64,000 nt of DNA from Minisyncoccota bacterium (GCA_963668425.1 OY764332.1:460336-524335), one strand, 5' to 3'. Shown: positions 34,786 to 55,795, numbered from the stretch's first letter. Program-made: numbers and translations. The notes: a model not told the origin generated them from the letters alone.

Positions 34786-34891
34786 TCTTTATATGGGGCG
34801 AACGTTTTACGTTCGCCCCTATTTTTATACTTGCAGATTACTATTGTTTTGCTATTTTTGCACTATATACTGTTTATATACTATACGTTGT

Positions 34892-35728
34892 ATGAGTGAT
34901 GTACATGTTGACAAGTTGAATAATTCGCAGTTGATATTGTTGGTGCTATTGATCTCGTTGGTGGTTAGTGCGGCGACGGCAGTGGCGACTTTGTCGGTGG
35001 TGTATGAGCGTTTGGCATTGGCTACGGAAGAGGATGTGGAAGCACGGCCGACCATTATTCGTCAGACCATTAATCGAATTATTGAGCGGGAGCCGGCGTT
35101 GCTGTCATCTGAGGTTGCTACAGGTATGCAACAGGTGTCGAGTGCGGGTATGGCACTTACGCTGGAGGCCATTGAGCAATCTTTAGTGCGAATTTACTTT
35201 GGCTCACAGCCATCTGCTCATGGTGTGTATGTCTCGCTGGACGGACACATTCTTACCTCGGAGGTGCTGGATGGACAACGGCGGTACAGTGTGCTTGATA
35301 GGGCGGGGCACCCCACTTTCTTTTCACTTTTGTATAGTGGTGAGGAGTACTCGTTGCTCTCTCCGGTAGATGTTGGTGTGCATACCGTGCAGCACTATGT
35401 GCCACTTGAGCATATCACTGATGTATCACTCGGGCAGGCAGTGGTTGTCTTTAGTGGGTCAGGACAGAATGCACAGTTGCACACTGGCATTGTTTCGCAA
35501 AAGAAGGTGATGGCCAATGCAGTTGAATCGGTGCGGATTTCTGTTGCTATGTCAGATGTTGTTAGCACTTCTGTAGTGTTTATTGAAAATTTGTTTGCTG
35601 GGTTTACACGGTCGTACTCCGACTGGGTTCCATTACTTGACAGTGCTTTTGTTGCTGGTGCGGCGCAGGCGATTCAGGCGCAGGCAGCGGCAAGAGATAC
35701 TGAATCAGCAGATGTAGGATCATCATAA
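34892..35728 (+). CDS. Hypothetical membrane-anchored protein
   Basis: N-terminal TM (LILLVLLISLVVSAATAVA). I recognise no family. Confidence 0.4.
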   Translation: MSDVHVDKLNNSQLILLVLLISLVVSAATAVATLSVVYERLALATEEDVEARPTIIRQTINRIIEREPALLSSEVATGMQQVSSAGMALTLEAIEQSLVRIYFGSQPSAHGVYVSLDGHILTSEVLDGQRRYSVLDRAGHPTFFSLLYSGEEYSLLSPVDVGVHTVQHYVPLEHITDVSLGQAVVVFSGSGQNAQLHTGIVSQKKVMANAVESVRISVAMSDVVSTSVVFIENLFAGFTRSYSDWVPLLDSAFVAGAAQAIQAQAAARDTESADVGSS

Positions 35729-35787
35729 TAATGGAGGGGTGTAAAGTGGTTGAAACGGCAGATTGGGTGTGTTACTATGTGTACTGT

Positions 35788-38490
35788 ATGTCGTCGTTTC
35801 AGCAATTTACCGCAAAAGCAAAAGAGGCCTTTCGGATGGCGCAAGAACTTGCCGTTGACAATGGACATCAGAATATTAGTCCAGTGCATTTATTCACTGC
35901 GCTTGTTGGGCAGGAGGATGGGATTGTACAGCCGGTGCTTCAGAAATTAAATATTGATCCTTATGCGCTATACAATCAGGCGGTTGGGTTGTTGGAGTCC
36001 CGTGCTTCATCGTTTGATATAGAAGGGTCGCCGATTGTGCAGCTGTATCCGACGCCGGAGCTGGCTATTGTGCTTGAGCATTCGGGTAAGATTGCAAATG
36101 CGCTTAAGGAAAAGCATATTTCAACTGAGCATTTGTTTTTGGCGGTGCTTGAAAAGCCGGGTATCCTGCGAGGATTGCTAGAGGGATATGGATTATATGC
36201 CAAGGAAGTGCATGAGACGATTGTGCAGTTGCGGAAGGAGAACAAGCAGGAAGTGCAAAATACAAAGGCGAAGAGCTTGGAGAAATATGGGCGTAATTTA
36301 ACGCAACTTGCCCGGGAAAATAAGTTGGATCCGGTTATTGGGCGCGATGAAGAGACCGCGCGAGTTATTCAGATATTGTCCCGCAGAACAAAGAACAACC
36401 CGATTCTTATCGGTGAGGCGGGAACTGGTAAGACGGCAATAGGTGAGGGTTTGGCGCAGAGAATTGTATCTGGTGATGTGCCAGAATCTATGCGCTCTAA
36501 AGAGTTGTACAGTTTGGATGTGGTTAGTATGTTGGCTGGGACGAAGTTTCGTGGGGAATTTGAGGATCGTCTGAAAAAGGTGATGAAAGAAGTGGAAGAC
36601 GCAAAGGATGCATATATTTTGTTTGTGGATGAGATACATTCGTTGGTTGGTACTGGGAATGCTGAGGGGACGATGGATGCCGCGAACATTCTGAAACCGG
36701 CACTTGCTCGTGGGCAGATGCGGATGATTGGGGCGACTACTTTGAAAGAATATCAGCAGCATATTGAAAAGGATGGTGCACTGACACGACGCTTTCAGCC
36801 GGTGTATGTTTCTGAGCCGTCTATTGAAGATGCGATTTCTATTCTGCGTGGGTTGCGAGAGCGGTATGAGGTATACCATGGTGTACGTATTACTGATGCG
36901 GCAATTGTTGCGGCGGCACAGCTGAGTAGTCGGTATATCACGGAGCGATTTTTGCCGGATAAGGCGATTGATTTGGTGGATGAGGCGGCTTCGTTGATGC
37001 GGGTATCGCTTGAGAATAAACCACCTGAGCTGGATGTGGCGCACCGGAGAATTATGCAGCTTGAAATTGAGATGGAAGCCGTTAAGAAAGATCATGAGGC
37101 GACAAAAGATGTCGGTACCAAAGAGCGGATGGAACAGTTGGAAAAGGAAATTGCTGATGTAAAGGAGGAGAGTAGGGAGCTGGAGGTGCGCTGGAAAAAT
37201 GAGAAAGAAACTATTGAGCAGATCAAGGAGTTGCAGACCAATCTTGAACGGAAACGCTATGAGGGAGAAGAAGCGGAAAGTAAGGCGGATTTTACGCGTG
37301 CGGCAGAGATTCGGTATAAGGATATTCCGCTGATTGAGAGTAAGTTTAAAAAGGCGCAGTCACGTTTGAAGCGACTGCAGAAAAATAGGAAGATATTGCG
37401 AGAGGAAGTTACTGAAGAGGATATTGCACATGTTATCGCGCGATGGACTGGTGTTCCGGCAACGAGAATGCTTGAGAGTGAGGCGAAGAAGTTGGGCAGA
37501 ATGGAGACAGAACTCAAGAAGCAAATTATCGGACAGGATGAATCTATACACAAAATTGCCGCGGCGATTAAGCGTTCGCGTGCTGGTATCGCGAATCCGG
37601 ATCGGCCGGTTGGCTCGTTTTTGTTTCTGGGTCCGACTGGTGTCGGGAAGACCGAACTTGCAAAACAGCTTGCACAGTATATGTTTGATGATGAGAAAGC
37701 GTTGGTGCGGTTTGATATGTCTGAGTATATGGAGCGGCACACGGTGTCTAAAATGATTGGTGCGCCTCCTGGGTATGTTGGCTATGAAGAGGCGGGTAAA
37801 CTGACTGAGGCAGTGCGACACCGACCGTATTCAATTGTGTTGTTTGATGAGATAGAGAAAGCGCATCCAGATGTATTTAATGTGTTATTGCAGGTGCTGG
37901 ATGACGGGCGGCTTACTGATAGCAAGGGGCGGCTGGTTAATTTTAAAAATGTGGTTGTTATTCTTACTTCTAATGTTGGTTCTGAGAAATTGATCAATAT
38001 GAATCAAATTGGATTTGAAGAAACGGTGAAGAAATCTGAAGAACGGTCCAGGCAGTATGATGAGGTGCGCAATAGGGTGATGGATACCCTGCAAAAATCG
38101 TTTAGGCCAGAGTTTTTGAATCGTCTTGATGAGATTATTGTCTTTAGACCGCTTAGTCAGCCAGATGTTAGGAAGGTGGTAACTTTGCAAGTTAATGAGG
38201 CGATACAACGACTTGCTGATCGGGAGATTACTATTACTGTTGATCGTGCGGTTTATGAGAAGATTGGCAAGGAGGGGTATCATGCTGAGTACGGTGCACG
38301 GCCGCTTCGTAGGAAGATTCAGACAGACCTGCTCAATCCACTTGCCAATGCCATTATTGAGGGTAATCTCGGCAGAGGTTCAAGTGTTCATGTGCGTGTT
38401 GAAAATGGTATGTACAAGTTTGGTGTTACCAAGAAGCATACTCAAAAATCTAAAGCAAAAACCAAAAAACGCGAAGGTGTGTTGGTGTAG
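35788..38490 (+). CDS. clpB: ATP-dependent chaperone ClpB
   Basis: Clp_N domain, two AAA+ modules (GEAGTGKTA; GPTGVGKT) and a long coiled-coil M-domain between them. Confidence 0.9.
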   Translation: MSSFQQFTAKAKEAFRMAQELAVDNGHQNISPVHLFTALVGQEDGIVQPVLQKLNIDPYALYNQAVGLLESRASSFDIEGSPIVQLYPTPELAIVLEHSGKIANALKEKHISTEHLFLAVLEKPGILRGLLEGYGLYAKEVHETIVQLRKENKQEVQNTKAKSLEKYGRNLTQLARENKLDPVIGRDEETARVIQILSRRTKNNPILIGEAGTGKTAIGEGLAQRIVSGDVPESMRSKELYSLDVVSMLAGTKFRGEFEDRLKKVMKEVEDAKDAYILFVDEIHSLVGTGNAEGTMDAANILKPALARGQMRMIGATTLKEYQQHIEKDGALTRRFQPVYVSEPSIEDAISILRGLRERYEVYHGVRITDAAIVAAAQLSSRYITERFLPDKAIDLVDEAASLMRVSLENKPPELDVAHRRIMQLEIEMEAVKKDHEATKDVGTKERMEQLEKEIADVKEESRELEVRWKNEKETIEQIKELQTNLERKRYEGEEAESKADFTRAAEIRYKDIPLIESKFKKAQSRLKRLQKNRKILREEVTEEDIAHVIARWTGVPATRMLESEAKKLGRMETELKKQIIGQDESIHKIAAAIKRSRAGIANPDRPVGSFLFLGPTGVGKTELAKQLAQYMFDDEKALVRFDMSEYMERHTVSKMIGAPPGYVGYEEAGKLTEAVRHRPYSIVLFDEIEKAHPDVFNVLLQVLDDGRLTDSKGRLVNFKNVVVILTSNVGSEKLINMNQIGFEETVKKSEERSRQYDEVRNRVMDTLQKSFRPEFLNRLDEIIVFRPLSQPDVRKVVTLQVNEAIQRLADREITITVDRAVYEKIGKEGYHAEYGARPLRRKIQTDLLNPLANAIIEGNLGRGSSVHVRVENGMYKFGVTKKHTQKSKAKTKKREGVLV

Positions 38491-38709
38491 GGAAAGATTG
38501 GCTTGTGTTCGGTGCTACCTTTGACGGTGCTATAAAACCATCAGAAAACTATCTGCGGGATGCAGTGTATATTTTTCTGATGGTTTTCGGCGTTCTGCTT
38601 ACGCCACTCGTCAAGCTTTTGCTTTGCAAAAACCTATCGGCTGTCGCCGATGTTCTCGTCGCCCGGTTCACACCATTACTGTTTCATTTTTATTGATAGT
38701 TGGTATTAC

Positions 38710-38794
38710 GGTGCGCCGGGCAGGATTTGAACCTGCGAAGCCTTTCGGCGATGGATTTACAGTCCATTGCAATTGACCACTCTGCCACCGACGC
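38710..38794 (-). tRNA. tRNA-Tyr (anticodon GUA), long variable arm
   Basis: Reverse complement folds with acceptor GCGTCGG/CCGGCGC, anticodon loop CTGTAAA and variable arm GCCGAAAGGC. Confidence 0.75.
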
Positions 38795-38858
38795 GCAATA
38801 TGCTGAGTATACCACCTTTTTTGAAAAATGATTGGGTGGTATGGTATACTACACCACT

Positions 38859-39014
38859 ATGTCACAAGATAATATCATTAATATGAAGTGCGAAGAAACA
38901 GGGGATATTCATTATGTAACTCGCAAGAATAGGAAACAGAATCCTGATCCGCTGGTACTAAAGAAGTATAATCAGAAACTCCGCAAGCACACCACGTACA
39001 AGGAATCTAAGTAA
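38859..39014 (+). CDS. rpmG: 50S ribosomal protein L33
   Basis: MSQDNIINMKCEETGDIHYVTRKNRKQNPDPLVLKKYNQKLRKHTTYKE matches the L33 pattern (C..C...Y.T.KN......L.LKKY.P...KHT..KE). Confidence 0.7.
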   Translation: MSQDNIINMKCEETGDIHYVTRKNRKQNPDPLVLKKYNQKLRKHTTYKESK

Positions 39015-39056
39015 ACCGCCTTACGTTTTGAAAATGCCTTAAAAATAAGGGATAGT

Positions 39057-39773
39057 ATGGTGTATACTGGCAAGGATATGGTAGGAGTGCTGTATGTGGT
39101 TGGGACGCCAATTGGGAATTTGGGGGATATGACAGGTCGGGCGGTGGAGGTATTGCGGGAGGTGGATACTATTTTTTGTGAAGATACACGGGTAACGCGG
39201 AATCTGTTGGCGCATTACACAATTGATGTTGCGTGTGTATCGTATCATTCGTTTAGTGGTTTCGGGAAGATTGCGTTGGCAATAGCCCTTATGAGACAAG
39301 GGAAAGATATTGCACTTGTCTCTGATGCTGGTACGCCGACTATCTCTGATCCAGGGGTAAAGTTTGTCCGGCATGTTCGTGAGACGTTTGGTGATGCGGC
39401 AGATATTCGTGCGGTACCGGGTGCATCTGCGGTTGTTGCCGCACTGTCTATCTCTGGTGCTCCGAGCTCTTCGTTTGTATTTTTAGGATTTCTGCCGCGG
39501 AAGAGGGGACGAAGATCTCTTTTTAGGGAGATTGCTGCTGAGAAGCGTACTGTGGTGTGTTATGAGGCACCACATCGATTGCTAAAGACACTTGAATCTC
39601 TGCGAGAGCATGTTGATCCGATGCGAGAAGTTATTGTTGCACGGGAAATGACAAAGGTGTATGAGCAAGTTGTTGCTGGAACAGCGGCAGATGTATTGGC
39701 ATATTATGTGGCACATTCGGATAAAGTGCGAGGTGAGGTGGTTATTATTATTTCCGCTTTGCAGAAGGTCTGA
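39057..39773 (+). CDS. rsmI: 16S rRNA (cytidine1402-2'-O)-methyltransferase RsmI (tetrapyrrole-methylase fold)
   Basis: Motifs LYVVGTPIGNLGDMT and IFCEDTRVTRNLL. Confidence 0.75.
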   Translation: MVYTGKDMVGVLYVVGTPIGNLGDMTGRAVEVLREVDTIFCEDTRVTRNLLAHYTIDVACVSYHSFSGFGKIALAIALMRQGKDIALVSDAGTPTISDPGVKFVRHVRETFGDAADIRAVPGASAVVAALSISGAPSSSFVFLGFLPRKRGRRSLFREIAAEKRTVVCYEAPHRLLKTLESLREHVDPMREVIVAREMTKVYEQVVAGTAADVLAYYVAHSDKVRGEVVIIISALQKV

Positions 39774-39846
39774 GTGTGTATGCTGTTTTTGTTTTTTTAT
39801 TGGTGTGAATGATATAGGTGGGATGGTTGCTGTATACTGAACTTGT

Positions 39847-40053
39847 ATGATATATCGCCTTATATTTGTCGCAAGTGTTGTTTTGCTTTCGTTTCCGTTT
39901 GTGGGGGTATATTTAAAGTGGAAAGTGTGGGTGGCGTTTGGGCTGGGAGTGTTGTTTTTTGTGTATTCTGTCTACAGTGCGGTTCGGCATGTTGCTGAGA
40001 AAGGAGAGAAGGAGTCGGCGGAGGTGGCGAAGCATGTTAAAAAGCAAGAGTAA
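39847..40053 (+). CDS. Small membrane protein, hypothetical
   Basis: 68 aa, two TM. Confidence 0.3.
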   Translation: MIYRLIFVASVVLLSFPFVGVYLKWKVWVAFGLGVLFFVYSVYSAVRHVAEKGEKESAEVAKHVKKQE

Positions 40054-40058
40054 ACTGT

Positions 40059-43000
40059 ATGGTGTACGATCCTGAAAGAATAGTAAGCATTGGGGAGCTA
40101 GAAAAACGAGGGAAGACCGTGCGTTTTGGTATTAAGGAAAAGGATAGGTCTCGGCATATTTATGTTATCGGACAGACGGGTACTGGTAAGTCAACATTGT
40201 TGGAGATGTTGGCGATGCAGGATATACGAAACGGTACCGGTTTGATTTTTATGGATCCGCATGGGCAGTCAGTTGAAGCATTGTTGCAATATGTAACACG
40301 GGACTATTTGGATAACATTATCTACTTTGCGCCACATCATCAGGAAAGACCGATTGGGTTGAATATTATGGAAGATATTGGCTATGATAAGCGGCATTTG
40401 GTGGTAAGTAGTTTGATGGCGTCGTTTGAGAAAATTTGGGGAGCTGGAACCTGGTCAGATAGGATGGCATACATTTTGCAGAATACGTTACTGGCGTTGA
40501 TTGAGTATCCTGGTACCACCTTGCTTGATGTTGGACGAATGTATAGTAGTAAAGGTTTTCGGGAGAAAGTTGTTGCTAACTTAAAAGACCCACAGGTGCG
40601 GAAGTACTGGGTTGAGGAATTTGCAAACTATACCGAGCGATACGCTCAGGAGGCAACACCATCTATTCAGAACAAGCTCGGTCAGTTTACCTCTAATCCG
40701 TTGATGCGAAATATTATTGGACAGAAGGACTCTGCGTTTAATTTTCGGGAGATTATGGATGAGGGGAAAATACTATTGGTGAATTTATCAAAAGGGCAGA
40801 TTGGTGAGAATAATGCACGAATGCTTGGTGTGTTGTTCACGACGAAGATTTATCTTGCCGCACTATCGCGAAGTAATATGACGAAGGCAGAGTTAGAGGC
40901 GGCGAATCCTTGTAATTTCTTTGTTGATGAGTTTCAGTCATTTGCGAATTCTTCTTTTTCTGATATTTTGTCTGAGGCGCGAAAATATAAGTTAAATCTG
41001 GTGATGGCGCATCAGTATTTAGGACAGTTATACTCTGATGACTCTGGTGGCGGAGATGTGATTCGGGATGCGGTGTTTGGTAATGTGGGAACCTTTGTAT
41101 CATTTCGGGTTGGTCCGGTTGATGCGGAGATTATTTCTAAACAATTTGCGCCGGATATTGCGGAGGAGGACTTGGTTGCGTTGCCACGGTATCATATATA
41201 CCTTACGTTGAATATTGATGGTGCCGGCTCTACACCATTTTCTGCAAGGACTTTTTATGAGCCAGCGCCGGAGAGTATGTCATTGGAGGATGAGGTTGTG
41301 CAGCGAACAATGGATGTTTACGGTGCTGATCGAGCGGCTGTAGAGAAATTGGTTGAGGATAATTTGGCGGAGGATGTTCAATCTAATGAAGTAGCAAAGA
41401 AATCTGGTGGACAGAAGGGTGGTGGGAAGAAATCTGGCTGGCAGCAGGGTGGTGGTGGACAAAGATCTGGCGGACAGAGGTCTGGTGGACAGAAGGGTGC
41501 ACATGGTGGTGACCGGAGAGATCTAGAGACCCATACCCCATTGAAGGGGTTGGTACAACAGATGATGCAGCGACCTGGGCAACAGAAGGAGGAGAAATCA
41601 AAAGAGCGAGGAGATGATGGTGAGGGATTTGTAAAAAAGAGGGTAGATGCGTCTGATCAGCCAAGGATGGATAGGTCAAAAGAACGTGTTGGGCAGAGGA
41701 GTGAAAGTAGGAGAATCCTGAAGAAGAAGGTGGATGTGTTGGAGCAGCGAGGAGCGAATGAGCCAAAGGAGCGTGTTGAGCAGAAGGGTGAGGTTGGAAA
41801 GGTTGTGAAGAAGGATGTTGCTATGTCAGTGACTGATATGCCGAAGAAAGGGCAGAGTGTCGTTGAGAGGTCAGAAGATGTTCGTGTTGTGGATACCCCA
41901 AAAGTACAGCACTCTTTTCCTGCAGAAGAACAGCGTAGGAGGCGAGGACGAGGGTCGGAAGGCGCTGCATCGGAGCGTGAACAGAATGACGACAGAAAAC
42001 GGTCTGCATCAAGTGGCAAGGTTCGTCGTGAAGAATCTGTTGCCATGCCGAGTCCTAATCAACAACGTACTCAGCGTAGGTCAAATCGTAGAGATGTTAA
42101 GCAGGATGATGGTGGTGGACAAAGATCTGGCGGACAGAGGTCTGGTGGACAGAAGGGTGAGGTTGGAAAGGTTGTGAAGAAGGATGTTGCTATGTCAGTG
42201 ACTGATATGCCGAAGAAAGGGCAGAGTGTCGTTGAGAGGTCAGAAGATGTTCGTGTTGTGGATACCCCAAAAGTACAGCACTCTTTTCCTGCAGAAGAAC
42301 AGCGTAGGAGGCGAGGACGAGGGTCGGAAGGCGCTGCATCGGAGCGTGAACAGAATGACGACAGAAAACGGTCTGCATCAAGTGGCAAGGTTCGTCGTGA
42401 AGAATCTGTTGCCATGCCGAGTCCTAATCAACAACGTACTCAGCGTAGGTCAAATCGTAGAGATGTTAAGCAGGATGATGGTGGTGGACAAAGATCTGGC
42501 GGACAGAGGTCTGGTGGACAGAAGGGTGAGGTTGGAAAGGTTGTGAAGAAGGATGTTGCTATGTCAGTGACTGATATGCCGAAGAAAGGGCAGAGTGTCG
42601 TTGAGAGGTCAGAAGATGTTCGTGTTGTGGATACCCCAAAAGTACAGCACTCTTTTCCTGCAGAAGAACAGCGTAGGAGGCGAGGACGAGGGTCGGAAGG
42701 CGCTGCATCGGAGCGTGAACAGAATGACGACAGAAAACGGTCTGCATCAAGTGGCAAGGTTCGTCGTGAAGAATCTGTTGCCATGCCGAGTCCTAATCAA
42801 CAACGTACTCAGCGTAGGTCAAATCGTAGAGATGTTAAGCAGGATGGAGAGGGTTCTGTACGGAATAGAGGGCAGCGACAGAAGAGGCAAAAGAACCATG
42901 GTGGAGGTGGTGGTCAGAGACATGCTCCCATAGATAAATTTGTTGTACGTACAGAGAAAGAGAAGGGTGGTTCTACAAGCAAGCAAGGAGTTTCTGCTGA

Positions 43001-43379
43001 CGTTAAGCAGGACGAAGCACGCGTAGAACAGCAGGTGAAAGAGAGGCGACCGCAACTTGCTGACGCTCTGCGACGACCAAATGGTGTTGTTGTTGGCACT
43101 GTTTCGCGAAGTATGGCGACACAGCAGTCAGTGACTGAACAACGTACTGAGCAGCCGGATGTCTCAGGTGGGCAGCAAGGCGCACAGGATGCAAAGCAGG
43201 AGCATTCTGGGAAACAGCAGCAGCGTGGGCATGCTGGTGGATTGGGTGATTTGGTAAAGACGACAAAGGCAAGCGGATTGCGAAAAGATTTGAAAGTTGC
43301 ACCGAAAAAAGAGAAGCATGCGCCGCCGATCAGATATGAGGAAGGGTGGTTTTCGATTGGGGATCTTGCCCGGAAGTAG
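40059..43379 (+). CDS. TraD/TraG/VirD4-like (type IV coupling protein family) P-loop ATPase without a TM anchor, with a long basic low-complexity C-terminal tail containing tandem repeats
   Basis: Walker A IGQTGTGKST, the MDPHG motif and Walker B FFVDEFQSF. The C-terminal 550 aa are rich in GGQRSGGQ and RR/KK. Confidence 0.6.
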   Translation: MVYDPERIVSIGELEKRGKTVRFGIKEKDRSRHIYVIGQTGTGKSTLLEMLAMQDIRNGTGLIFMDPHGQSVEALLQYVTRDYLDNIIYFAPHHQERPIGLNIMEDIGYDKRHLVVSSLMASFEKIWGAGTWSDRMAYILQNTLLALIEYPGTTLLDVGRMYSSKGFREKVVANLKDPQVRKYWVEEFANYTERYAQEATPSIQNKLGQFTSNPLMRNIIGQKDSAFNFREIMDEGKILLVNLSKGQIGENNARMLGVLFTTKIYLAALSRSNMTKAELEAANPCNFFVDEFQSFANSSFSDILSEARKYKLNLVMAHQYLGQLYSDDSGGGDVIRDAVFGNVGTFVSFRVGPVDAEIISKQFAPDIAEEDLVALPRYHIYLTLNIDGAGSTPFSARTFYEPAPESMSLEDEVVQRTMDVYGADRAAVEKLVEDNLAEDVQSNEVAKKSGGQKGGGKKSGWQQGGGGQRSGGQRSGGQKGAHGGDRRDLETHTPLKGLVQQMMQRPGQQKEEKSKERGDDGEGFVKKRVDASDQPRMDRSKERVGQRSESRRILKKKVDVLEQRGANEPKERVEQKGEVGKVVKKDVAMSVTDMPKKGQSVVERSEDVRVVDTPKVQHSFPAEEQRRRRGRGSEGAASEREQNDDRKRSASSGKVRREESVAMPSPNQQRTQRRSNRRDVKQDDGGGQRSGGQRSGGQKGEVGKVVKKDVAMSVTDMPKKGQSVVERSEDVRVVDTPKVQHSFPAEEQRRRRGRGSEGAASEREQNDDRKRSASSGKVRREESVAMPSPNQQRTQRRSNRRDVKQDDGGGQRSGGQRSGGQKGEVGKVVKKDVAMSVTDMPKKGQSVVERSEDVRVVDTPKVQHSFPAEEQRRRRGRGSEGAASEREQNDDRKRSASSGKVRREESVAMPSPNQQRTQRRSNRRDVKQDGEGSVRNRGQRQKRQKNHGGGGGQRHAPIDKFVVRTEKEKGGSTSKQGVSADVKQDEARVEQQVKERRPQLADALRRPNGVVVGTVSRSMATQQSVTEQRTEQPDVSGGQQGAQDAKQEHSGKQQQRGHAGGLGDLVKTTKASGLRKDLKVAPKKEKHAPPIRYEEGWFSIGDLARK
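41789..42850. repeat. About 2.9 perfect tandem copies of a 369-bp coding repeat in the coupling-protein-like gene tail
   Basis: Identical 106-aa shadow ORFs lie at 41857, 42226 and 42595, with period 369. A partial extra copy sits near 41455. Confidence 0.85.
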
Positions 43380-43564
43380 GGCTTTGTGTTGCGGGTGTTA
43401 CTTGCTTCACATGTGTATTTCTTGTGTGTTGATATAGGTGATACTTTACTGCTGGCTAGGGTTATATCGGGTGGTTATTGCTGGGCTGGTGTTGTGTTTT
43501 TTGTAGATGGCGCCTGTTGCCGTGGCTATAGGTGAGGTGGTGTTTGTGATACAATACCTTTATT

Positions 43565-46500
43565 ATGGTTGAAAAAAGAGGTGAAAAGGTTTCCGATCGG
43601 GAGGAGCGGATATTGCGGTTTTGGCGAGAGAATGCGGTTTTTGAGAAAAGTGAAGGGCGAGAGAAGAAAGGTTTTTTGTGGCGTTTATTGCGAACAGTAT
43701 TCCCTAAAAGGCGATTTATTTTTTATGATGGTCCGCCATTTGCGACGGGTTTGCCGCATTTTGGTAACCTCTTGGCGAGTATTGTGAAAGACGCAGTGCC
43801 GCGTTATAAGACAATGCGAGGGTATCAGGTTTCTCGGCGTTGGGGGTGGGATTGTCATGGATTACCGCTTGAAGTGGAGATGGAAAAGAAGATCGGGACG
43901 AATACGAAACGGGATATTGAGGAGTATGGAATAGAGAAGTTTAATCGTGGTATTTGTGATACTATTTTTACCTATATAGATGAGTGGAAGAGGATTATTC
44001 CGCGAATTGGTCGGTGGGTGGATATGGAGCGTGATTACCGTACTATCAGTACATCGTATATGGAATCAGTATGGTCGGTGTTTCATCGGTTACATACACG
44101 CGGTTTTGTCAGTAATGGTTTCAAGTCGCTGTATTTTTGTCCGCGCTGTTCAACCACTATTTCAAATGCAGAAGTTGCTGATACGTATGAGATGTTGACT
44201 GATACAGCGGTGTTTGTACTTTTTCCTCTGAAGGATGATCCGGATACTTATTTAGTTGCGTGGACGACGACCCCATGGACATTATTTGGTAATGTTGCAC
44301 TTGGTGTGGATGTTGGTATGGATTATACGGTTGTTGAAAAAGATGGGAAAAAATATATACTTCAGAAGAGTGCAGCTGATGTTGTTTCTGGTGGTACCGT
44401 TGTTGGAGTGGAGAAAGGTGCTGCATTGCTTGGGAAGGAGTATGTGCCGCCGTTTGACCATCTCTATGTTGAGGATGGTGAGCAGGTGAAAGCGAAGTTG
44501 TGGCGTGTGCAAAAGGTGTCGTATATTGAGGAGGGGGTTGGCACTGGTATTGTGCATCTTGCTCCGGCGTATGGAGCAGAGGATATGGAGGTTGCACTGA
44601 GGGAAGGTTTGCCGATTCGGCATCATGTTAGCAAGGAGGGTGTTTTTGTCCCGCAGATAGAGGGATATGCCGGTTTGCGTCCTAAAGAGGTGGGGAATCC
44701 AAATGATGTTGATGAAAAGATATTGCAGGATTTACGGAATAAGGGTGTACTGCTCTATGATGAGGCAATAGAGCATATGTATCCGGTGTGTTGGCGCTGT
44801 AAGACACCACTTCTGAACTATGCTACAGATTCGTGGTTTGTGCATTCGGAGCGGTTTAAAGATCGTATGGTTTCTGAAAACAAAAAAGTCGTTTGGGTGC
44901 CGGCACATATTCGGGATGGTCGGTTTGGTAATTGGTTGGCAGATGCGCGTGAATGGGCGGTGTCACGGGATCGCTTCTGGGGTGCGCCGGTGCCAACGTG
45001 GAAAGTTGAAAAAACAGGTGCACATATCATCGTTCGTTCATTGGAGGATATGTGCAAGAGGATGCGTCCGAGAAATCGCTATTTTTTTGTGCGACATGGA
45101 CATTCGATAAGCAATGAAAAAGGTGTTTTGAACTGCAAAGAAGAGGAGGGTGATGGATTGACTGAGAAGGGAAGAGAGCAGGCGGTAGCAGTTGTACAAA
45201 AATTGAAAGATGTAAAGCCGACTGTTATTTTTTATTCACCCCTGGCTCGCACACGAGAAACGGCAATGTGTATTGCAAAAGAAACTGGTGCGCAGATGGT
45301 TGAGGAGCCGTTGCTGACTGAGTTGCAGGTGCCGAGTTTACATAATCGGTCAATACGCGAATTGTGGAGATCAGTTCATTCGCTTGATGCGTTTCGTAAT
45401 TTGGACAAATCTATCGCTGGAGGTGAATCATTTTTAGATGTGTATCGGCGAGTATTGCAATTTTTTGAAAAAGTAGATCAGGAATATAAAGATGCGAATA
45501 TTGTGGTGGTTACACATCGCTCGGTTGTTAACGCGGCACGCTCGGTTGCGCCGACACATGCGCAGTTTACGAAGCTGTATAGGAAAGGCACTGTGATCAA
45601 ACCAATTCCTAATGGAGGAGTGTGTAGCGTTCGGTATGTACATTTACAGAGGGACGAGAATGGGGAAGTTGATTTGCATCGGCCGTATGTTGATGGAGTG
45701 GTGTTGTATGATGTGGACGGCAATCCGGCGTATCACACCAAGGAGGTGTTTGACTGTTGGTTTGAGTCGGGTGCTATGCCGTACGGGTCGCATCATTATC
45801 CATTTGAGAATAAGTGGTCGTTTAATCCGATGTTGCAACGTGGCTTTCCGGCACATTTTATTTGTGAAGGGTTGGATCAGACACGTGGGTGGTTTTATAG
45901 CTTGATGGCAATTGGTGTTGGTGCGTTTGATCAGTCGCCGTATCGTAATGTGGTGGTAACCGGTCTGATTCGTGCCGCGGATGGAAAAAAGATGAGTAAA
46001 AGCTTGCAGAATTACACTGATCCGATGGAACTTGTTGAGCGCTATGGCGCGGATGCACTGCGACATTACCTTCTTGGTTCTTCAGTAGTGCGTGGGGAAG
46101 ATCTTGATTTTAAGGATGAACAGATTGATGAGATTTATAAGAAGGTATATACTCGGCTACATAATTGCCTTAATTTTTATATGATATATGCACATCTGCC
46201 GCATCTTGGAGGCAGCAGGAATGTATTGGATATCTATATTCATTCTCGACTTGCTCAAACTCGGAATGCGATGATGAAAGGGTTTGAATTGTATCATGTT
46301 GATGAGGCGGTCGCACCAATAGGATCATTTGTGGAGGATTTATCAACTTGGTATATTCGTCGTTCACGGGATAGGATAAAGAATCGGACGGATGACGGTG
46401 CGCAGGCGCGTGAGACATTGCGATTTGTATTGACTGAATTCGCGAAATGTCTTGCTCCGATTGCGCCATTTTATGCTGAATATTTGTTTTTGGAAATGCG

Positions 46501-47065
46501 GAAGCATCATCCGCATAAATTCTTTTTGCCAGAGAGTGTACACCTTGCGCGATGGCCACAGAGGATGTTGATTCAGAAGGAGGCGATAGAGAAAACTGTC
46601 GCGGTGCGTGATATTGCTTCATCTGTGCATGAACAACGAGCTGAGGCGGGGATAAAGGTGCGGCAGCCGTTGTCAAAGGTGATACTACAGCAGGAGGTGG
46701 ATGAAGGGCAGAAAGAATTGCTTAAAGCCGAGGTGAATGTTAAAGAGGTAATTGTTGATCCTGAGGCCGTGCGGTCTGTGGTACTGCATACTGAGCTTAC
46801 GGATGCGTTGCGTGCTGAGGGGTTTGTGCGGGAGTATATTCGTAATGTTCAGAAGATGCGAAAAGAGAAAGGATTTTCACCTACAAAAATGGCGGACACG
46901 TTATTTGTATGTGTGTTTGACGAGCAGAAAAAATATCTGCAGGATCATGAAGTGAAAATTAAGCAAGAGGTACAGGTGCGTTCTGTTGTGTACACTGAGA
47001 CAAGTCCGAAGGATGCTACTGTGTTTAGCATAGATCGTATGGAAGTTGTATCAGATATTGTGTAA
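43565..47065 (+). CDS. ileS: Isoleucine--tRNA ligase with an inserted histidine-phosphatase (PGM-family) domain
   Basis: HIGH-like PHFGN, KMSKS, and the editing and anticodon-binding domains are all present. A 190-aa module with RHG, SPLARTRETA and VVVTHRSV motifs is inserted in frame. Confidence 0.85.
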   Translation: MVEKRGEKVSDREERILRFWRENAVFEKSEGREKKGFLWRLLRTVFPKRRFIFYDGPPFATGLPHFGNLLASIVKDAVPRYKTMRGYQVSRRWGWDCHGLPLEVEMEKKIGTNTKRDIEEYGIEKFNRGICDTIFTYIDEWKRIIPRIGRWVDMERDYRTISTSYMESVWSVFHRLHTRGFVSNGFKSLYFCPRCSTTISNAEVADTYEMLTDTAVFVLFPLKDDPDTYLVAWTTTPWTLFGNVALGVDVGMDYTVVEKDGKKYILQKSAADVVSGGTVVGVEKGAALLGKEYVPPFDHLYVEDGEQVKAKLWRVQKVSYIEEGVGTGIVHLAPAYGAEDMEVALREGLPIRHHVSKEGVFVPQIEGYAGLRPKEVGNPNDVDEKILQDLRNKGVLLYDEAIEHMYPVCWRCKTPLLNYATDSWFVHSERFKDRMVSENKKVVWVPAHIRDGRFGNWLADAREWAVSRDRFWGAPVPTWKVEKTGAHIIVRSLEDMCKRMRPRNRYFFVRHGHSISNEKGVLNCKEEEGDGLTEKGREQAVAVVQKLKDVKPTVIFYSPLARTRETAMCIAKETGAQMVEEPLLTELQVPSLHNRSIRELWRSVHSLDAFRNLDKSIAGGESFLDVYRRVLQFFEKVDQEYKDANIVVVTHRSVVNAARSVAPTHAQFTKLYRKGTVIKPIPNGGVCSVRYVHLQRDENGEVDLHRPYVDGVVLYDVDGNPAYHTKEVFDCWFESGAMPYGSHHYPFENKWSFNPMLQRGFPAHFICEGLDQTRGWFYSLMAIGVGAFDQSPYRNVVVTGLIRAADGKKMSKSLQNYTDPMELVERYGADALRHYLLGSSVVRGEDLDFKDEQIDEIYKKVYTRLHNCLNFYMIYAHLPHLGGSRNVLDIYIHSRLAQTRNAMMKGFELYHVDEAVAPIGSFVEDLSTWYIRRSRDRIKNRTDDGAQARETLRFVLTEFAKCLAPIAPFYAEYLFLEMRKHHPHKFFLPESVHLARWPQRMLIQKEAIEKTVAVRDIASSVHEQRAEAGIKVRQPLSKVILQQEVDEGQKELLKAEVNVKEVIVDPEAVRSVVLHTELTDALRAEGFVREYIRNVQKMRKEKGFSPTKMADTLFVCVFDEQKKYLQDHEVKIKQEVQVRSVVYTETSPKDATVFSIDRMEVVSDIV
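45070..45650 (+). other. Histidine-phosphatase (phosphoglycerate-mutase-like) domain embedded in IleRS between the WGAPVP and DLHRPYVD blocks
   Basis: FVRHGHSISN (the catalytic His of the RHG motif), FYSPLARTRETA, GGESFLDVYRRV and IVVVTHRSVV appear in canonical order. Confidence 0.75.
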
Positions 47066-47089
47066 GGTGATGTGAATGAATGAAAGGTA

Positions 47090-47665
47090 TTATTGGTGGT
47101 ATAGGGCGTTTTTGAGATGTTGTTGTAACTCTTTTTGTCGGTGTGGGTTGGCTATGGTTTCCTTGAGTATGTTTGTAAACTGAGTAGGTACGATATTTTG
47201 ATCGGGTACGTATCCGAGTGTAGTGAGTAGCATTACCTGCGCAATGAGGAGAATGTGTTGGACATGTGTTTGTTGTGATTTTTGAAGGAGTTCTGTTGCA
47301 GTTTCAACGGTATGAAACACATTTTCATCGTACGATTCAGTTATAGGGATGAGTGTTCGGAGACAGCGTAAGAGGGCAACAAATGCTGTATATTTTTGTT
47401 TATTATTCCATATTTGGTCGAGCGTGTTGGTGATGGTGATGTCTTTTAATATGGTGCGTCTGCTCAGTATTACAGAAACAGAAACACGGGCATACGGTTT
47501 GGCACCGCCTCGCATTTTTGCACCATCTTTACGGATTCCGCGTGCATATAGGTTCATAAGCCCATTTTCTTTTGTGAGTGCGGTGATTACTCTATCTGCC
47601 TCACCGGTTGCTCGGGTGTGGATGATGAATGCGTCTGTGGTGAGTATGGGGTATGATTTTAGCAT
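47090..47665 (-). CDS. recO: DNA repair protein RecO (putative)
   Basis: The N-terminal OB-fold region (ILTTDAFIIHTRATGEADRVITALTKENGLMNLYARGIRK) resembles the RecO N-terminus. The C-terminus is divergent. Confidence 0.5.
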   Translation of the reverse strand: MLKSYPILTTDAFIIHTRATGEADRVITALTKENGLMNLYARGIRKDGAKMRGGAKPYARVSVSVILSRRTILKDITITNTLDQIWNNKQKYTAFVALLRCLRTLIPITESYDENVFHTVETATELLQKSQQTHVQHILLIAQVMLLTTLGYVPDQNIVPTQFTNILKETIANPHRQKELQQHLKNALYHQ

Positions 47666-47817
47666 ACGGTTTCAAAAGGGTTCGTAGGGAGTTCTGTATT
47701 GGATGATTGAATTGGTAGCATGCAACACTGGTGTGTAGTATACGTTATTCATACTGCCTATTTTGATTTTAGAAGGTATTTTGCTATGCATCCAGTAGTG
47801 TTATTTGTTGATTCATT

Positions 47818-47847
47818 TTGCGTTGTTGTCTATGGGTGTGGTATACT
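47818..47847 (+). promoter_or_regulatory. Putative promoter TTGCGT-18-TATACT, within 80-bp duplicated module copy A (47769..47850)
   Basis: It sits upstream of a 42-aa peptide ORF (ATG about 47915, RBS ACGGAGGT) and ORF 48028. Confidence 0.4.
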
Positions 47848-48027
47848 GCTAATGGATTAGGTTTTGTAAGTTTTGTTTTAGAGGGTGGGCTATTTAATAT
47901 AACGGAGGTCACAAATGAATATTGTATTGTTGATCGTGCTTGTCTCATTCTTGCCAGTACTCGTAACACTGGTTGTATTTCATATCTCCAAACAGTTTAG
48001 ATCCCAGCCACAGAGTGTGGGAGTGTT

Positions 48028-48336
48028 TTGTCAATTCTGGTAACATTGATAGTGCTTGAATTGGGTAAAACAGTGGCGCTACAATTTGCACCGTGGATGT
48101 ACCACTTAGAAATAAAGGAACTTATTGGAATCTTCTCATTAGGCATAATACCGCTATCCTTAGTAACATTTTTAGTAACATTTGCTATCTTTAGGGAACT
48201 CAAGGTGAGCTATTTTGCTGAACAATCTACTGTTGACATGTTACGGCAATCATTGCTCGTAACAGGCATAACAGTAGTATTCATTGTGTTCAAAACGTAC
48301 GAAATTCAGTCAATTGCAGAAATTATCAATGGGTAA
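48028..48336 (+). CDS. Hypothetical small membrane protein (TTG start in track; ATG alternatives at 47915 for a 42-aa peptide, or an internal ATG)
   Basis: Hydrophobic ORF downstream of the duplicated promoter. A terminator follows at 48348. Confidence 0.35.
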   Translation: MSILVTLIVLELGKTVALQFAPWMYHLEIKELIGIFSLGIIPLSLVTFLVTFAIFRELKVSYFAEQSTVDMLRQSLLVTGITVVFIVFKTYEIQSIAEIING

Positions 48337-48347
48337 ATATTGGTACG

Positions 48348-48385
48348 TAATAAAATCTGCCAGCACACGCTGGCAGATTTTTACT
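48348..48385. terminator. Rho-independent terminator
   Basis: ATCTGCCAGC-acac-GCTGGCAGAT followed by TTTTACTTTTT. Confidence 0.55.
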
Positions 48386-48465
48386 TTTTGGATTCAACAT
48401 TCATAAAAATTTTATGAATTTCAAGGTATTTGCTATGCATCCAGTAGTGTTATTTGTTGATTCGT

Positions 48466-48495
48466 TTTGCGTTGTTGTCTATGGATGTGGTATAT
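48466..48495 (+). promoter_or_regulatory. Putative promoter TTGCGT-18-TATATT, within duplicated module copy B (48423..48500)
   Basis: About 95% identical to copy A; upstream of the gene at 48555. Confidence 0.4.
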
Positions 48496-48554
48496 TGTCG
48501 GTAGGTTGAGTTCTGAAAGTTCTATTTTTTACAAATACAAAAGGAGGGTTTACT

Positions 48555-49163
48555 ATGAGAACGTATGCCAAGATGAGAGTGACTGGAGGTCCTGGATTTG
48601 TGCCGCCTCTTTCTGTTGGTGTGACTGATGTCTATGAAGATGACTCAGTGCAAGTTTCAGAGGTTGCGAGACGTCATTACAGTTCTTTGTTGTCTGCTGG
48701 GTTTCCTTTTCGATTTGAACGTTTATATAATGGGCTTGCCCGGTATTTAGGGGATGCTGTTCATCTGTTGGATTTCAAAACCATCTATGAATTTGATGTT
48801 TTTTCTCAAGTCCCCGAAAGATACATGCAGAAGGGTGAGAATTTTACTTTGTTTGAAGATATGTACTCTTTCCTCCGATGGGATGGGTCGTTTGTGGGTA
48901 TTGGTGAGGACGGTTTTGGTCCACAACGATACCTTGTGCGACAAAAGGTGTTGTCCTGCACTACCCCCGTTGCAGAGCATGTGGGTGATTTTACTGTTCT
49001 TTCTGAGGGTGAAACAGTCAAGCATGCCTTTGATGTTGCTATCTATTCCAGAGGGTGGTATATTTATGGAATATTGTTTGAGCAGAGATCGGATGGTCGT
49101 CTGTTGAATGCCGTTTTACACCTTCCTTCTGGATGCAAAGGGACTCTTTCGCCCCGTGGATGA
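48555..49163 (+). CDS. Hypothetical cytoplasmic protein
   Basis: 202 aa, strong RBS AAGGAGGG; no family recognised. Confidence 0.45.
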   Translation: MRTYAKMRVTGGPGFVPPLSVGVTDVYEDDSVQVSEVARRHYSSLLSAGFPFRFERLYNGLARYLGDAVHLLDFKTIYEFDVFSQVPERYMQKGENFTLFEDMYSFLRWDGSFVGIGEDGFGPQRYLVRQKVLSCTTPVAEHVGDFTVLSEGETVKHAFDVAIYSRGWYIYGILFEQRSDGRLLNAVLHLPSGCKGTLSPRG

Positions 49164-55774: not shown

Positions 55775-55795
55775 CCGTGTCTACAGCATTTTTTT

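Follow-up and report, generated by a model that had tools for sequence, protein, structure and literature searches.

The open reading frame (ORF) at 40059..43379 (+ strand) of the window, by which we mean the whole 64-kb stretch of DNA that was analyzed, is complete and encodes a protein of 1,106 amino acids (aa) in which a type IV coupling protein (T4CP)-type ATPase is followed by a basic disordered tail and a conserved C-terminal module. Taken as a whole, the data are explained best, in our moderately confident view, by a cytoplasmic ATPase of the VirD4/TrwB/TraD family that has no transmembrane domain (TMD), is encoded by a housekeeping-like gene, and couples cargo to a membrane channel. 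The family to which it belongs has become vertically inherited and housekeeping-like in Paceibacteria-type Patescibacteria, outside conjugation or type IV secretion system (T4SS) clusters.

The ORF lies where the initial annotation had placed it, and the motifs named there were recovered in the translation (GQTGTGKST, aa 38 to 46; MDPHG, aa 65 to 69; FFVDEFQ, aa 287 to 293; MAHQYLGQL, aa 316 to 324). Read from the translation, Walker A (GQTGTGKST) is at 40170..40196 and Walker B (NFFVDE, aa 286 to 291) is at 40914..40931, both on the + strand. Among 26 homologs, G38, T40, G41, G43, K44, S45, and T46 of Walker A and V289, D290, E291, F292, and Q293 of the Walker B region were invariant. In an AF2 model of the ATPase (pLDDT, 84.3; pTM, 0.84), the folded domain (aa 1 to 445; 40059..41393, + strand; pI 5.1) consists of a nucleotide-binding domain and an all-alpha domain in a VirD4/TrwB fold. 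It ends at about aa 445, so the 560-aa ATPase half proposed initially had its boundary about 115 aa off. The all-alpha domain (40383..40760, + strand; helices aa 109 to 234 in the AF2 secondary structure) lies between Walker A and Walker B, the arrangement that we used as the criterion for a T4CP and that is absent from VirB4, HerA, and FtsK; the account of TrwB given in PMC7434980 likewise puts its all-alpha domain between the Walker regions.

Assignment to the TraD/VirD4 family had been proposed from the sequence, with a profile search as the suggested check. Pfam analysis of the ATPase domain gave DUF87 at 34.9 bits (cutoff, 23.2), TrwB_AAD_bind at 25.7 bits (cutoff, 20.5), and TraG-D_C at 22.1 bits (cutoff, 22.0), and a PDB sequence search recovered TrwB (E value of 9e-5). 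Foldseek searches with the AF2 model agreed, placing Cagbeta/VirD4 (8dol; E value of 2e-13) and TrwB at the top, followed by HerA, DotL, and VirB4; TM-scores for TrwB were 0.61 to 0.66 on target length. No curated T4CP equivalog was matched among the NCBIfam models TraD, SXT_TraD, CD1115, and CedD (best, SXT_TraD at 43 bits versus a cutoff of 366; CedD at 36 versus 600). We also considered a HerA/FtsK translocase, for which one would expect a HAS-barrel at the N terminus (HerA) or alpha/beta/gamma domains with multipass TM (FtsK) and no all-alpha insertion, and rejected it: the all-alpha insertion is present, HerA structures fit worse than TrwB (query-length TM-scores of 0.47 to 0.50 versus 0.56 to 0.59), and the HerA NCBIfam model scored 13 bits against a cutoff of 800. 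By profile matches and predicted fold, residues 1 to 445 are a VirD4/TrwB-type coupling-protein ATPase.

The protein had initially been described as soluble and devoid of a transmembrane (TM) anchor. A hydropathy scan bore out the missing anchor, finding no TM segment anywhere in the 1,106 aa (maximum 19-aa Kyte-Doolittle mean, 0.96); all homologs share the start position of the ATPase, without an N-terminal extension, and the protein is of the "T4CP lacking TMD" subfamily, not of the VirD4 type, which has two or more N-terminal TM helices. That it is soluble holds as far as its own TM segments go but is otherwise doubtful, because a conserved two-TM mini-protein is encoded directly upstream. 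The mini-protein ORF (39847..40053, + strand; 68 aa) is predicted by hydropathy to form two TM helices (aa 1 to 25 and 27 to 47) with a charged C-terminal tail, and it stops 5 nucleotides (nt) before the ATPase ATG. Homologs are found directly upstream of the ATPase in loci L001, L003, L005, and L093, and a profile search of the 50 loci whose upstream sequence extends for 5 kb or more placed the mini-protein ahead of the ATPase, on its strand, in 41 of them and nowhere else. The 5-nt spacing is kept in the window and in L093, though both lack the DUF4015 gene; DUF4015 in most relatives comes directly after the mini-TM gene and ahead of the ATPase, and in many loci the three are packed on the same strand (gaps of 22 to 56 nt in L026, L071, and L038). 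Since DUF4015 usually intervenes, the link between mini-TM protein and ATPase may be one of synteny only. By gene arrangement, the mini-protein is nonetheless a candidate membrane tether for the ATPase. TMD-less T4CPs are presented as a recognized subfamily, thought to use small membrane partners, in the sections of PMC7434980 and PMC13037476 that treat them; the latter describes membrane recruitment of TraJ by TraI as a postulate.

The locus is of housekeeping character. Upstream is an rsmI-like methyltransferase gene (TP_methylase; 39057..39773, + strand; PF00590, E value of 2e-34), a conserved neighbor that marks a syntenic block running rsmI, mini-TM, a DUF4015 wall-hydrolase-like gene where present, and ATPase; an rsmI homolog precedes the ATPase gene on the same strand in all 43 related loci that contain one. 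The ATPase gene has clpB, L33, rsmI, ileS, and recO as neighbors in the window, and Pfam returned housekeeping matches or none for the 38 other window ORFs (the matches include ftsEX, clpB, rsmI, ileS, recO, gatB, mraY-like, ftsW, yceG, mnmA, miaA, nusG, ndk, adk, and peptidases). The initial annotation had inferred a chromosomal gene with no conjugation or T4SS gene nearby, and this agrees with the 64 kb, in which Pfam recognized no T4SS, relaxase, or pilin family among those 38 ORFs, a result that small divergent T4SS subunits could escape. Neither was linkage to virB4 or a relaxase recognized by Pfam in the examined flanks of relatives. In line with a gene outside T4SS clusters, PMC12102498 gives 5,713 T4CP homologs in 2,918 Patescibacteria genomes, just 148 of them near virB4.

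The gene belongs to a large family, with at least 8,000 matches in a clustered database (5,008 representatives at an E value of ≤1e-30) and 591 confirmed matches among GTDB species genomes. Almost all of the 80 loci kept from the GTDB matches are titled as Patescibacteria/CPR groups. Members are 50 to 57% identical across classes, and in the same genome pairs the median identity was 54.6% for the ATPase versus 50.7% for RsmI. The closest family members score 750 to 880 bits; the closest ortholog, P0121 of locus L093, is on a circular 647-kb contig and is 95% identical in the ATPase. The best plasmid match is 37.5% identical and the best phage match 27%, and a TMD-less homolog with 27% identity lies in a Bacillus plasmid transfer region beside relaxase-like and VirB4-like genes.

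With the ATPase ending near aa 445, the tail comprises 661 aa (aa 446 to 1106; 41394..43376, + strand) rather than the 550 aa first proposed. It is rich in R (13%), G (13%), K (10%), and Q (10%), with 152 K+R and 96 D+E residues, a net charge of +56, and a pI of 10.6, and the AF2 pLDDT falls under 50 beyond about aa 445. Tails in the family are 85 to 354 aa long and net positive in 77 of 80 cases; we infer nucleic-acid binding by the tail from its charge alone. The description of the tail as highly variable is apt, as it gave no DNA-level alignment even against a relative with 81 to 84% identity in the flanking genes. DNA similarity to L093 stops exactly at an internal motif, ETHTPLKGLVQQMMQR (41526..41573, + strand; aa 490 to 505), which is aligned across the subgroup (columns 517 to 530) and with P0121. 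The tail ends in a 45-aa module, LGDLVKTTKASGLRKDLKVAPKKEKHAPPIRYEEGWFSIGDLARK (43242..43376, + strand), that is conserved in the subgroup alignment and is a putative docking peptide; the last 157 aa are 51% identical to P0121. Across the family, the C-terminal peptide motif occurs at 64 of 78 tail ends versus 3 of 3,900 shuffled ends and is absent from the rest of the tails (11,477 aa scanned). AF2 gave no confident docking of the peptide onto the ATPase.

Within the tail lies a perfect tandem array (41781..42846, + strand) of 1,066 bp, or 2.89 copies of 369 bp, which has zero mismatches and is in frame (aa 575 to 930). Exact comparison delimits the copies at 41781-42149, 42150-42518, and 42519-42846, and Tandem Repeats Finder reports a period of 369, 2.9 copies, 100% matches, and a score of 2132. 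The period, identity, and copy number of about 2.9 noted initially thus stand, while the bounds given with them (41789..42850) were off by 4 to 8 nt. Each 123-aa unit carries 29 K+R and 19 D+E residues. By exact nucleotide comparison, a 49-nt element encoding GGQRSGGQRSGGQKG (41454..41502, + strand) recurs identically at 42114 and 42483, where it forms both internal junctions of the array, and the left array boundary has a 10-nt microhomology (CAGAAGGGTG). In P0121 the unit occurs once, as a diverged copy starting at the equivalent residue, aa 575 (33% identity; E value of 2e-13). Because the closest ortholog has only this one copy, the triplication appears to be recent and lineage specific; the copy number is that of the assembly, and reads are needed to verify it.

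An origin of the three-copy array wholly or partly in assembly, with one or two copies in the true genome or a number that varies within the population, seems improbable to us. Perfect 369-bp repeats do exceed short-read length, the exact protein was not found in public collections, and no second assembly of this strain exists; DNA similarity to the unit is lacking in its nearest relatives (L086, L087, and L093). Assemblers, however, usually collapse perfect tandem repeats and rarely expand them, and the reading frame passes intact through the array. The conserved C-terminal module, reached after 616 aa of tail, is still in the frame of the ATPase, evidence that translation of the entire ORF continues across the repeats. 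The composite junctions, in which a 49-nt element is reused and a 10-nt microhomology appears, are unlike a simple duplication error by an assembler and argue for a real, stepwise rearrangement. The repeat would be the product of a very recent unequal-recombination or slippage event, adding 246 aa and a net charge of about +20 to the linker and probably altering its reach and charge rather than its function. Its interest is mainly as a natural case of a disordered linker that has changed quickly in length, and it may also mark strain-level heterogeneity.

Under the explanation that we favor, the ATPase would assemble as a TrwB-like hexameric ring. The mini-TM protein would hold it at the membrane, the role postulated for TraI toward TraJ in pIP501, and/or partners bound through the C-terminal peptide would tether it there. 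The basic tail could work as a flexible arm that captures either nucleic acid (DNA or RNA), as polyanionic cargo, or acidic partner proteins, and ATP hydrolysis would pass the cargo to a membrane channel, most probably the phylum's chromosomal T4SS, encoded elsewhere. Several observations count against T4SS coupling. No T4SS component was recognized in 64 kb. Of 3,035 assemblies, 2,918 have T4CP homologs versus 2,417 with VirB4, a difference of about 500. PMC12102498 reports that in Southlakia the T4CP homolog is dispensable and the T4SS essential. A second, membrane-anchored type of paralog (DUF8128 plus T4CP) occurs in a cluster with a T4SS-pilin-like gene (a weak Pfam match at the one locus examined) and may already fill the coupling role. 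Finally, the tail is basic, and the T4CP C-terminal domains described so far are acidic, at least as PMC7434980 summarizes them.

The anchored paralog, the assembly counts, and the basic tail would fit better with a tentative alternative that we rate below T4SS coupling: a T4CP exapted as a T4SS-independent, housekeeping DNA or RNA translocase that grips nucleic acid with its tail and is partnered by the products of its gene block, the mini-TM protein and the extracytoplasmic wall hydrolase DUF4015. Such a motor might import DNA for nucleotide scavenging or handle the chromosome or nucleoid at division. It would agree with synteny to housekeeping genes rather than virB4, with conservation of the ATPase at least as strong as that of RsmI, and with the tight same-strand packing of its three genes, and the authors of PMC12102498 state, in their discussion of these homologs, that exaptation "cannot be ruled out." Both DNA/RNA binding and the channel partner are putative, however; missing virB4 genes in draft metagenome assemblies may reflect incompleteness, and a nonessential Southlakia homolog is hard to square with a core role in segregation. 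ComEC-based competence is dispensable in Southlakia as well. A bolder version, which we regard as a long shot, makes the short T4CP the motor of a minimal, phylum-wide device (mini-TM, DUF4015 hydrolase, and ATPase) that moves nucleic acid across or along the membrane independently of both T4SS and ComEC. If it were true, host DNA or RNA import, for example, could feed organisms unable to make nucleotides, and the fast-evolving tail, with its repeat expansion and conserved end peptides, would tune cargo capture.

Two further origins are far less likely. A part in antiphage defense, as a HerA-type or MADS mad8-like ATPase, is very unlikely even though PADLOC matched mad8 (E value of 7e-15): that match reaches just 53 bits, versus 181 bits for PHROG 5156 and the 750 to 880 bits of the closest family members, HerA models are weak, and SIR2-HerA and other defense HerA complexes stand lower in the Foldseek ranking than T4CP folds. 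No other MADS, SIR2, or nuclease gene was found nearby among the window ORFs by Pfam, and a locus fixed beside rsmI and inherited vertically in hundreds of species is unlike a defense island; with clpB, L33, rsmI, ileS, and recO as neighbors, we rejected a MADS system, in which mad8 accompanies the other mad genes (methyltransferase, nuclease, and others). Descent from an integrated conjugative element, plasmid, or prophage, of which the gene would be a remnant, is harder still to credit. T4CPs are typical of mobile elements, homologs occur on plasmids and in Bacillus phages, and PHROG 5156 matches with an E value of 5e-53, but those plasmid and phage homologs are distant, no integrase, relaxase, or transposase was found in the window, and the local GC content (0.46 to 0.49) lies within the window range (0.39 to 0.50). 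Both flanks are moreover collinear with the relative's circular 647-kb chromosome, and all 43 genomes whose flank includes rsmI have the gene in an identical position.

Patescibacteria account for much of bacterial diversity and depend on other microbes, which makes their supply of building blocks a matter of interest. In Southlakia, the sole genetically tractable species, the T4SS is essential, and its cluster has no recognizable coupling protein (Wang et al.). A near-universal, conserved coupling-type ATPase away from the T4SS would either supply the coupling or recruitment factor that is missing or represent a coupling protein turned to housekeeping, and both outcomes would be informative. 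Experiments can start from the C-terminal peptide, from the mini-TM partner and the DUF4015 neighbor, or from the split between short and long paralogs.

The family is almost certainly already catalogued rather than a one-off, among the orphan VirD4-type T4CP homologs of Patescibacteria counted in 2025 (Quinonero-Coronel et al., PMC12102498), which come from the same phylum, have the same Pfam signature, and are chromosomal and mostly far from virB4. The portions of that report dealing with these homologs count them and make no mention of an absent TMD, a basic tail, a C-terminal peptide, rsmI/mini-TM/DUF4015 synteny, or a short/long split; relative to them, the 2.9-copy perfect repeat is specific to the present genome. 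In the literature on these homologs we found no description of the basic tail with its end peptide, the upstream two-TM mini-protein, or the anchored DUF8128-T4CP paralog near a weak T4SS-pilin-like match, and these are the additions of the present analysis. The long DUF8128-T4CP paralogs, which also match PHROG 5156, are of the same phylum and 42 to 49% identical in the ATPase, closer than any plasmid T4CP. They carry one or two N-terminal TM helices and a DUF8128 domain of about 350 aa, whereas the short form has no anchor; at the one locus examined, two copies flank the cluster with the pilin-like gene, a context that the short form lacks.

Among characterized systems, TraJ and TraI of pIP501, as outlined in PMC7434980 and PMC13037476, offer the same combination of a TMD-less T4CP ATPase and a small membrane protein encoded beside it, in the monoderm MPF-FATA setting, of which the Patescibacteria T4SS is a relative. 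The likeness is one of gene arrangement, and here the mini-TM gene is followed more often by DUF4015 than by the ATPase. TraJ and TraI belong to a tra operon that also includes a relaxase and VirB4; the present gene lies among housekeeping genes, and the descriptions of TraJ in those two sources mention no long basic tail. TrwB (R388) and Cagbeta/VirD4 (Helicobacter pylori) are the best structural matches (Foldseek E values of 2e-13 to 1e-12) although just 12 to 18% identical to the present ATPase. Both have the nucleotide-binding domain, with the all-alpha domain lying between the two Walker regions, and their Walker motifs are similar (GATGTGKS in TrwB, GQTGTGKS here). Unlike the present protein, TrwB and VirD4 have an N-terminal two-TM anchor that is essential for function, are encoded on a plasmid or pathogenicity island beside their T4SS, and lack a basic disordered tail. 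TraD of the F plasmid and DotL of Legionella likewise join an ATPase ring to a flexible C-terminal extension, the end of which docks a specific partner (TraM for TraD; IcmSW and adaptors for DotL), but their extensions are acidic and shorter, whereas the tail described here is basic (pI 10.6) and 661 aa long.

The ORF at 40059..43379 (+) is genuine and encodes a protein of 1106 aa, whose translation contains all of the motifs quoted in the initial annotation. Its N-terminal domain belongs to the ATPase family of type IV coupling proteins (T4CPs; VirD4/TrwB type), as had been proposed, and this assignment is sound, since profile searches, PDB searches, the predicted fold and the catalytic residues all support it. 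The HMM search suggested earlier matched the Pfam models DUF87/HerA-central, TrwB_AAD_bind and TraG-D_C, all above gathering score, and a PDB sequence search returned TrwB (E = 9e-5) and HerA (E = 5.5e-4). An AF2 model of the domain, made from 26 homologues, was confident (pLDDT of 84.3; pTM of 0.84); its RecA-like core holds an all-helical insertion (aa 109-234), which separates Walker A (aa 38-46) from Walker B (aa 286-291), and a published account (PMC7434980) describes an all-alpha domain at the same place in TrwB. Foldseek comparison of this model with the PDB placed Cagbeta/VirD4 and TrwB at the top (E of 2e-13 to 1e-12; TrwB TM-score of 0.61-0.66 by target length), with HerA, DotL and VirB4 ranked below them, and the catalytic residues are invariant among homologues. 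The top NCBIfam models, TraD-type and CedD, scored far under their cutoffs, so the protein lies outside all curated equivalogs. Scans for promoters and terminators near the gene gave counts not above those of shuffled sequence, and an Rfam scan of its flanks returned no RNA elements.

Hydropathy scanning found no transmembrane (TM) segment anywhere in the 1106-aa protein (maximum 19-residue mean, 0.96), bearing out the earlier reading that an anchor is missing. The folded part ends at about aa 445, rather than at the 560 aa first assigned to the N-terminal part, and the AF2 model is disordered beyond that point; the tail, from aa 446, is therefore 661 aa long and not 550. It is strongly basic (K+R, 152; D+E, 96; net charge, +56; pI 10.6), and the ATPase domain has a pI of 5.1. 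We surveyed tails in 80 complete loci, including two duplicate contigs of the same genes and the window itself. Tails of relatives span 85 to 354 aa (median of 176 over all 80 loci), which makes the window tail the longest by far, and they are net positive in 77 of the 80 loci, with a median pI of 9.7. A basic disordered tail is thus universal in the family.

The tails also end in a conserved peptide. Of 78 proteins, 58 carry the motif E-(V/I)-P-E-(E/D)-x-L-(R/K)-x-(I/L)-(L/F) within their final 32 residues, and two subgroup variants, including that of the window, PP(I/V)xYEEGW(V/F)S(I/L)GDL, account for six more. Among 3,900 shuffled tail ends, 3 contained such a motif, and 11,477 aa of real tail held these motifs at no other position. 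The conserved end forms a 45-aa module in the subgroup of the window, and an internal tail motif, THTPLKGLVQQ, is conserved as well. A full-length AF2 model of P0004, a short-tailed homologue, gave a tail pLDDT below 50, with three short low-confidence helices at the conserved tail motifs and a terminal peptide making no confident contact with the ATPase. In a 5.8-billion-protein database, a 15-sequence profile of the C-terminal module returned no other protein at an E value of ≤1, a search in which true family members also went unscored; a single 47-aa C-terminal query had too few common words for that database.

The family is large. With aa 1-460 as the query, at least 7,999 proteins among 8,000 scored candidates matched at an E value of ≤1e-5; by the sources that name them, these homologues come mostly from Kaiserbacteria, Paceibacteria and Minisyncoccia, and NCBI calls them [quoted passage not shown] When 1.84 billion representatives were scanned exhaustively with HMMER, there were 5,008 proteins at an E value of ≤1e-30 and 20,652 at ≤1e-3. 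Among GTDB species genomes there were 591 confirmed matches, from which 80 loci were kept, nearly all with titles that name Patescibacteria or CPR groups. Identity of the ATPase domain holds at 50 to 57% throughout the Kaiserbacteria/Paceibacteria/Minisyncoccia-type lineages, and the domain is conserved no less well than the rRNA methyltransferase RsmI (median identities of 54.6% and 50.7%, respectively, for the same genome pairs). Moreover, all 43 loci that include rsmI have it upstream of the ATPase gene in the same orientation. The closest full-length orthologue, P0121 (921 aa; ATPase 95% identical), is encoded at locus L093 on a circular 647,271-bp contig with 465x coverage in the order clpB, rsmI, mini-ORF, ATPase, ileS, recO, which is the order in the window, and the flanking DNA is 81 to 84% identical. 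As judged from these comparisons, steady identity, RsmI-level conservation, shared synteny, the collinear contig and flank similarity indicate vertical, housekeeping-like inheritance. The best plasmid and phage homologues are 37.5% and 27% identical, and we reject an origin from a plasmid, ICE or prophage in view of this low identity together with synteny. A defense function (PADLOC mad8, 53 bits; HerA) is likewise rejected in view of context and score.

The chromosomal setting proposed earlier agrees with the surrounding genes. The window is ordinary chromosome, in which 38 other ORFs scanned with Pfam gave housekeeping matches or none. Upstream of the ATPase gene lie ftsE/ftsX, a 2015-aa Calx-beta surface protein gene, clpB, tRNA-Tyr, L33 and rsmI; downstream are ileS and recO; and farther away are gatB, an MraY-like glycosyltransferase gene, ftsW, yceG, mnmA, miaA, nusG, ndk, adk, peptidase genes and a 23S-5S rRNA pair. 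As the initial annotation had noted for conjugation genes, Pfam recognized no T4SS, relaxase, integrase or pilin family among the 38 ORFs, a scan that small divergent T4SS subunits could evade.

Several features of this region were recorded in passing. GC skew is positive across 1..64000 (0.06 to 0.40 per 2 kb), and the + strand holds almost every plausible gene. The 2015-aa ORF (26830..32877, -), with Calx-beta domains and a weak LapA-like match under the Pfam cutoff, probably encodes a giant surface or adhesin protein. The 23S (19448-22448) and 5S (22570-22680) rRNA genes (+) have no 16S rRNA gene in the window, and its absence from the 19 kb upstream of the 23S gene means that the rRNA genes are unlinked. 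ARAGORN called two adjacent tRNA-Leu(CAA) genes (61611-61695 and 61737-61819, -), of which the second alone meets the Rfam threshold. Because the miaA ORF as mechanically called (60692..61813) runs into both of them at its 5′ end, the true miaA start is probably farther downstream. In the ileS product (43565..47065, +), a histidine-phosphatase domain (PF00300; E = 2e-30) occupies aa 507-660 as an insertion that splits the catalytic domain in two; the relatives L086, L087 and L093 share this architecture. In L086 (3650..6533) and L087 (5519..7924), close relatives both out of metagenome assembly ERZ21830300, the orthologous ATPase gene was called in two or three pieces; we suspect frameshift errors in noisy long-read contigs rather than real pseudogenes.

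Directly upstream, a 68-aa ORF with two TM segments (mini-TM; 39847..40053, +) ends 5 nt before the ATPase gene. Recognizable homologues (LLSFPF.G.Y..WK.W; in other lineages, PFSGLP) immediately precede the ATPase gene in L001, L003, L005 and L093. Among 50 loci with 5 kb or more of sequence on the upstream side, a mini-TM profile matched there in 41, always in the orientation of the ATPase gene, and it matched at no other position. At about 30 loci, a TM-anchored glycosyl-hydrolase-like DUF4015 gene (PF13200; E = 3e-91) stands between the mini-TM and ATPase genes, its start codon often overlapping the mini-TM stop codon. The mini-TM/DUF4015 pair (L006, 4045..5590; L014, 2181..3733; L026, 4443..5952; and about 27 others) is located between rsmI and the ATPase gene in most Paceibacteria-type genomes and is missing in the window; there and in L093, which lack DUF4015, the mini-TM gene still lies 5 nt from the ATPase gene. 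The mini-TM protein is thus a member of a conserved block of rsmI, mini-TM, DUF4015 and ATPase. Since DUF4015, and not the ATPase, directly follows mini-TM at those 30 or so loci, a "split anchor" role for mini-TM, suggested by analogy, is a lead and not a result.

The exceptional length of the window tail accompanies a perfect 369-bp tandem array. Tandem Repeats Finder (single array, period 369, 2.9 copies, 100% matches, score of 2132) and an exact scan (1,066 bp, 2.89 copies, no mismatch) agree with the copy number first reported, and the array itself stood while its ends moved by 4 to 8 nt, to 41781..42846 (+). It spans aa 575 to 930, starting in codon phase 0, and each unit adds 123 aa and +10 net charge. 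The window and P0121 tails can be aligned only at their ends (first 144 aa, 46% identity; last 157 aa, 51%), the first block ending at the start of repeat unit 1, and 41574..43068 has no DNA similarity to L093, in contrast to the flanks. P0121 carries one diverged unit copy (33% identity over 119 aa; E = 2e-13 without composition adjustment) starting at the same residue, aa 575; the triplication is therefore later than the split of the two lineages. Zero differences in 1,066 bp mean that it is very recent or that its uniformity is maintained by recombination. A 49-nt element, J (GGQRSGGQRSGGQKG; 41454..41502, +), lies upstream of the array and recurs identically inside both inter-copy junctions, and the 10-nt string CAGAAGGGTG is common to the left boundary of the array and the end of J. 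The resulting layout, J-A-B-J-B-J-B, where B is the array unit, is most readily accounted for by template switching or unequal recombination, with the J-B unit amplified afterward, and is unlike the product of a simple assembler duplication. Neither the array nor any DNA similarity to its unit was found in L086 or L087, and an exact-sequence lookup of the 1106-aa protein in public records found no entry. Only 7 of 78 family tails contain any tandem array, all but that of the window small (scores of ≤106), so the large perfect repeat is exceptional and not a family trait. As assembled, the triplication is a recent change at the level of the strain.

With an intact T4CP-fold ATPase, no anchor, a basic disordered tail with end-peptides, a neighboring two-TM protein and vertical inheritance, members of this family might, by analogy with coupling proteins, act as hexameric rings that bind a substrate and then translocate it or pass it on. 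Recruitment to the membrane could occur via the mini-TM protein, in the manner of TraI and TraJ, or via partners of the C-terminal peptide, and family knowledge suggests that the basic tail may be an arm that captures polyanionic cargo or else acidic partners.

Whether such a motor would serve a T4SS divides two readings. The phylum's T4SS has no recognized coupling protein in cis (the essential Southlakia cluster lacks a recognizable coupling protein or relaxase [Wang et al. 2023]); for this reason we rate a T4SS-associated role slightly above a T4SS-independent one, in which the T4CP has been exapted. Findings of Quinonero-Coronel et al. (2025, PMC12102498), who raise exaptation as possible, favor the latter: they count 5,713 VirD4-type T4CP homologues, spread over 2,918 of 3,035 Patescibacteria assemblies, more widespread than VirB4 (2,417 assemblies) and only 148 of them near virB4, and they report that in Southlakia the T4CP homologue is dispensable and the T4SS essential. 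Paralogues with an anchor point the same way. About 46 of the best 150 representatives, all ≤49% identical, are of a long type with one or two N-terminal TM helices and a DUF8128 of about 350 aa ahead of the ATPase, the layout of PHROG 5156. At one locus (L091/L092), two such genes (10001..12826, +, and 20701..22826, -) flank about 12 small genes without Pfam matches and one weak T4SS_pilin match (PF18895), whereas the short, anchorless type studied here is an orphan. A basic rather than acidic tail also fits exaptation. Because this evidence contrary to a T4SS role is substantial, we give exaptation real weight, while thinking it rather unlikely.

This kind of gene is already catalogued, and no family member is characterized. 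A T4CP subfamily without a TM domain is recognized in two reviews (PMC7434980 and PMC13037476), exemplified by TraJ of pIP501, for which the small membrane protein TraI is a putative anchor; these reviews also describe the C-terminal domains of known T4CPs as acidic, in contrast to the basic tail here. On a Bacillus subtilis plasmid (CP121709.1; L090, 5974..7709), a 412-aa T4CP-like gene without a TM domain is followed by two tiny ORFs of 87 and 60 aa, both extremely acidic, and then by a relaxase-like gene; the acidic "tail" that T4CPs typically have may there be encoded as separate peptides. The family described here differs from characterized coupling proteins in four ways: it has no TM domain, no T4SS linkage, a basic tail with a putative docking peptide, and housekeeping-like conservation.
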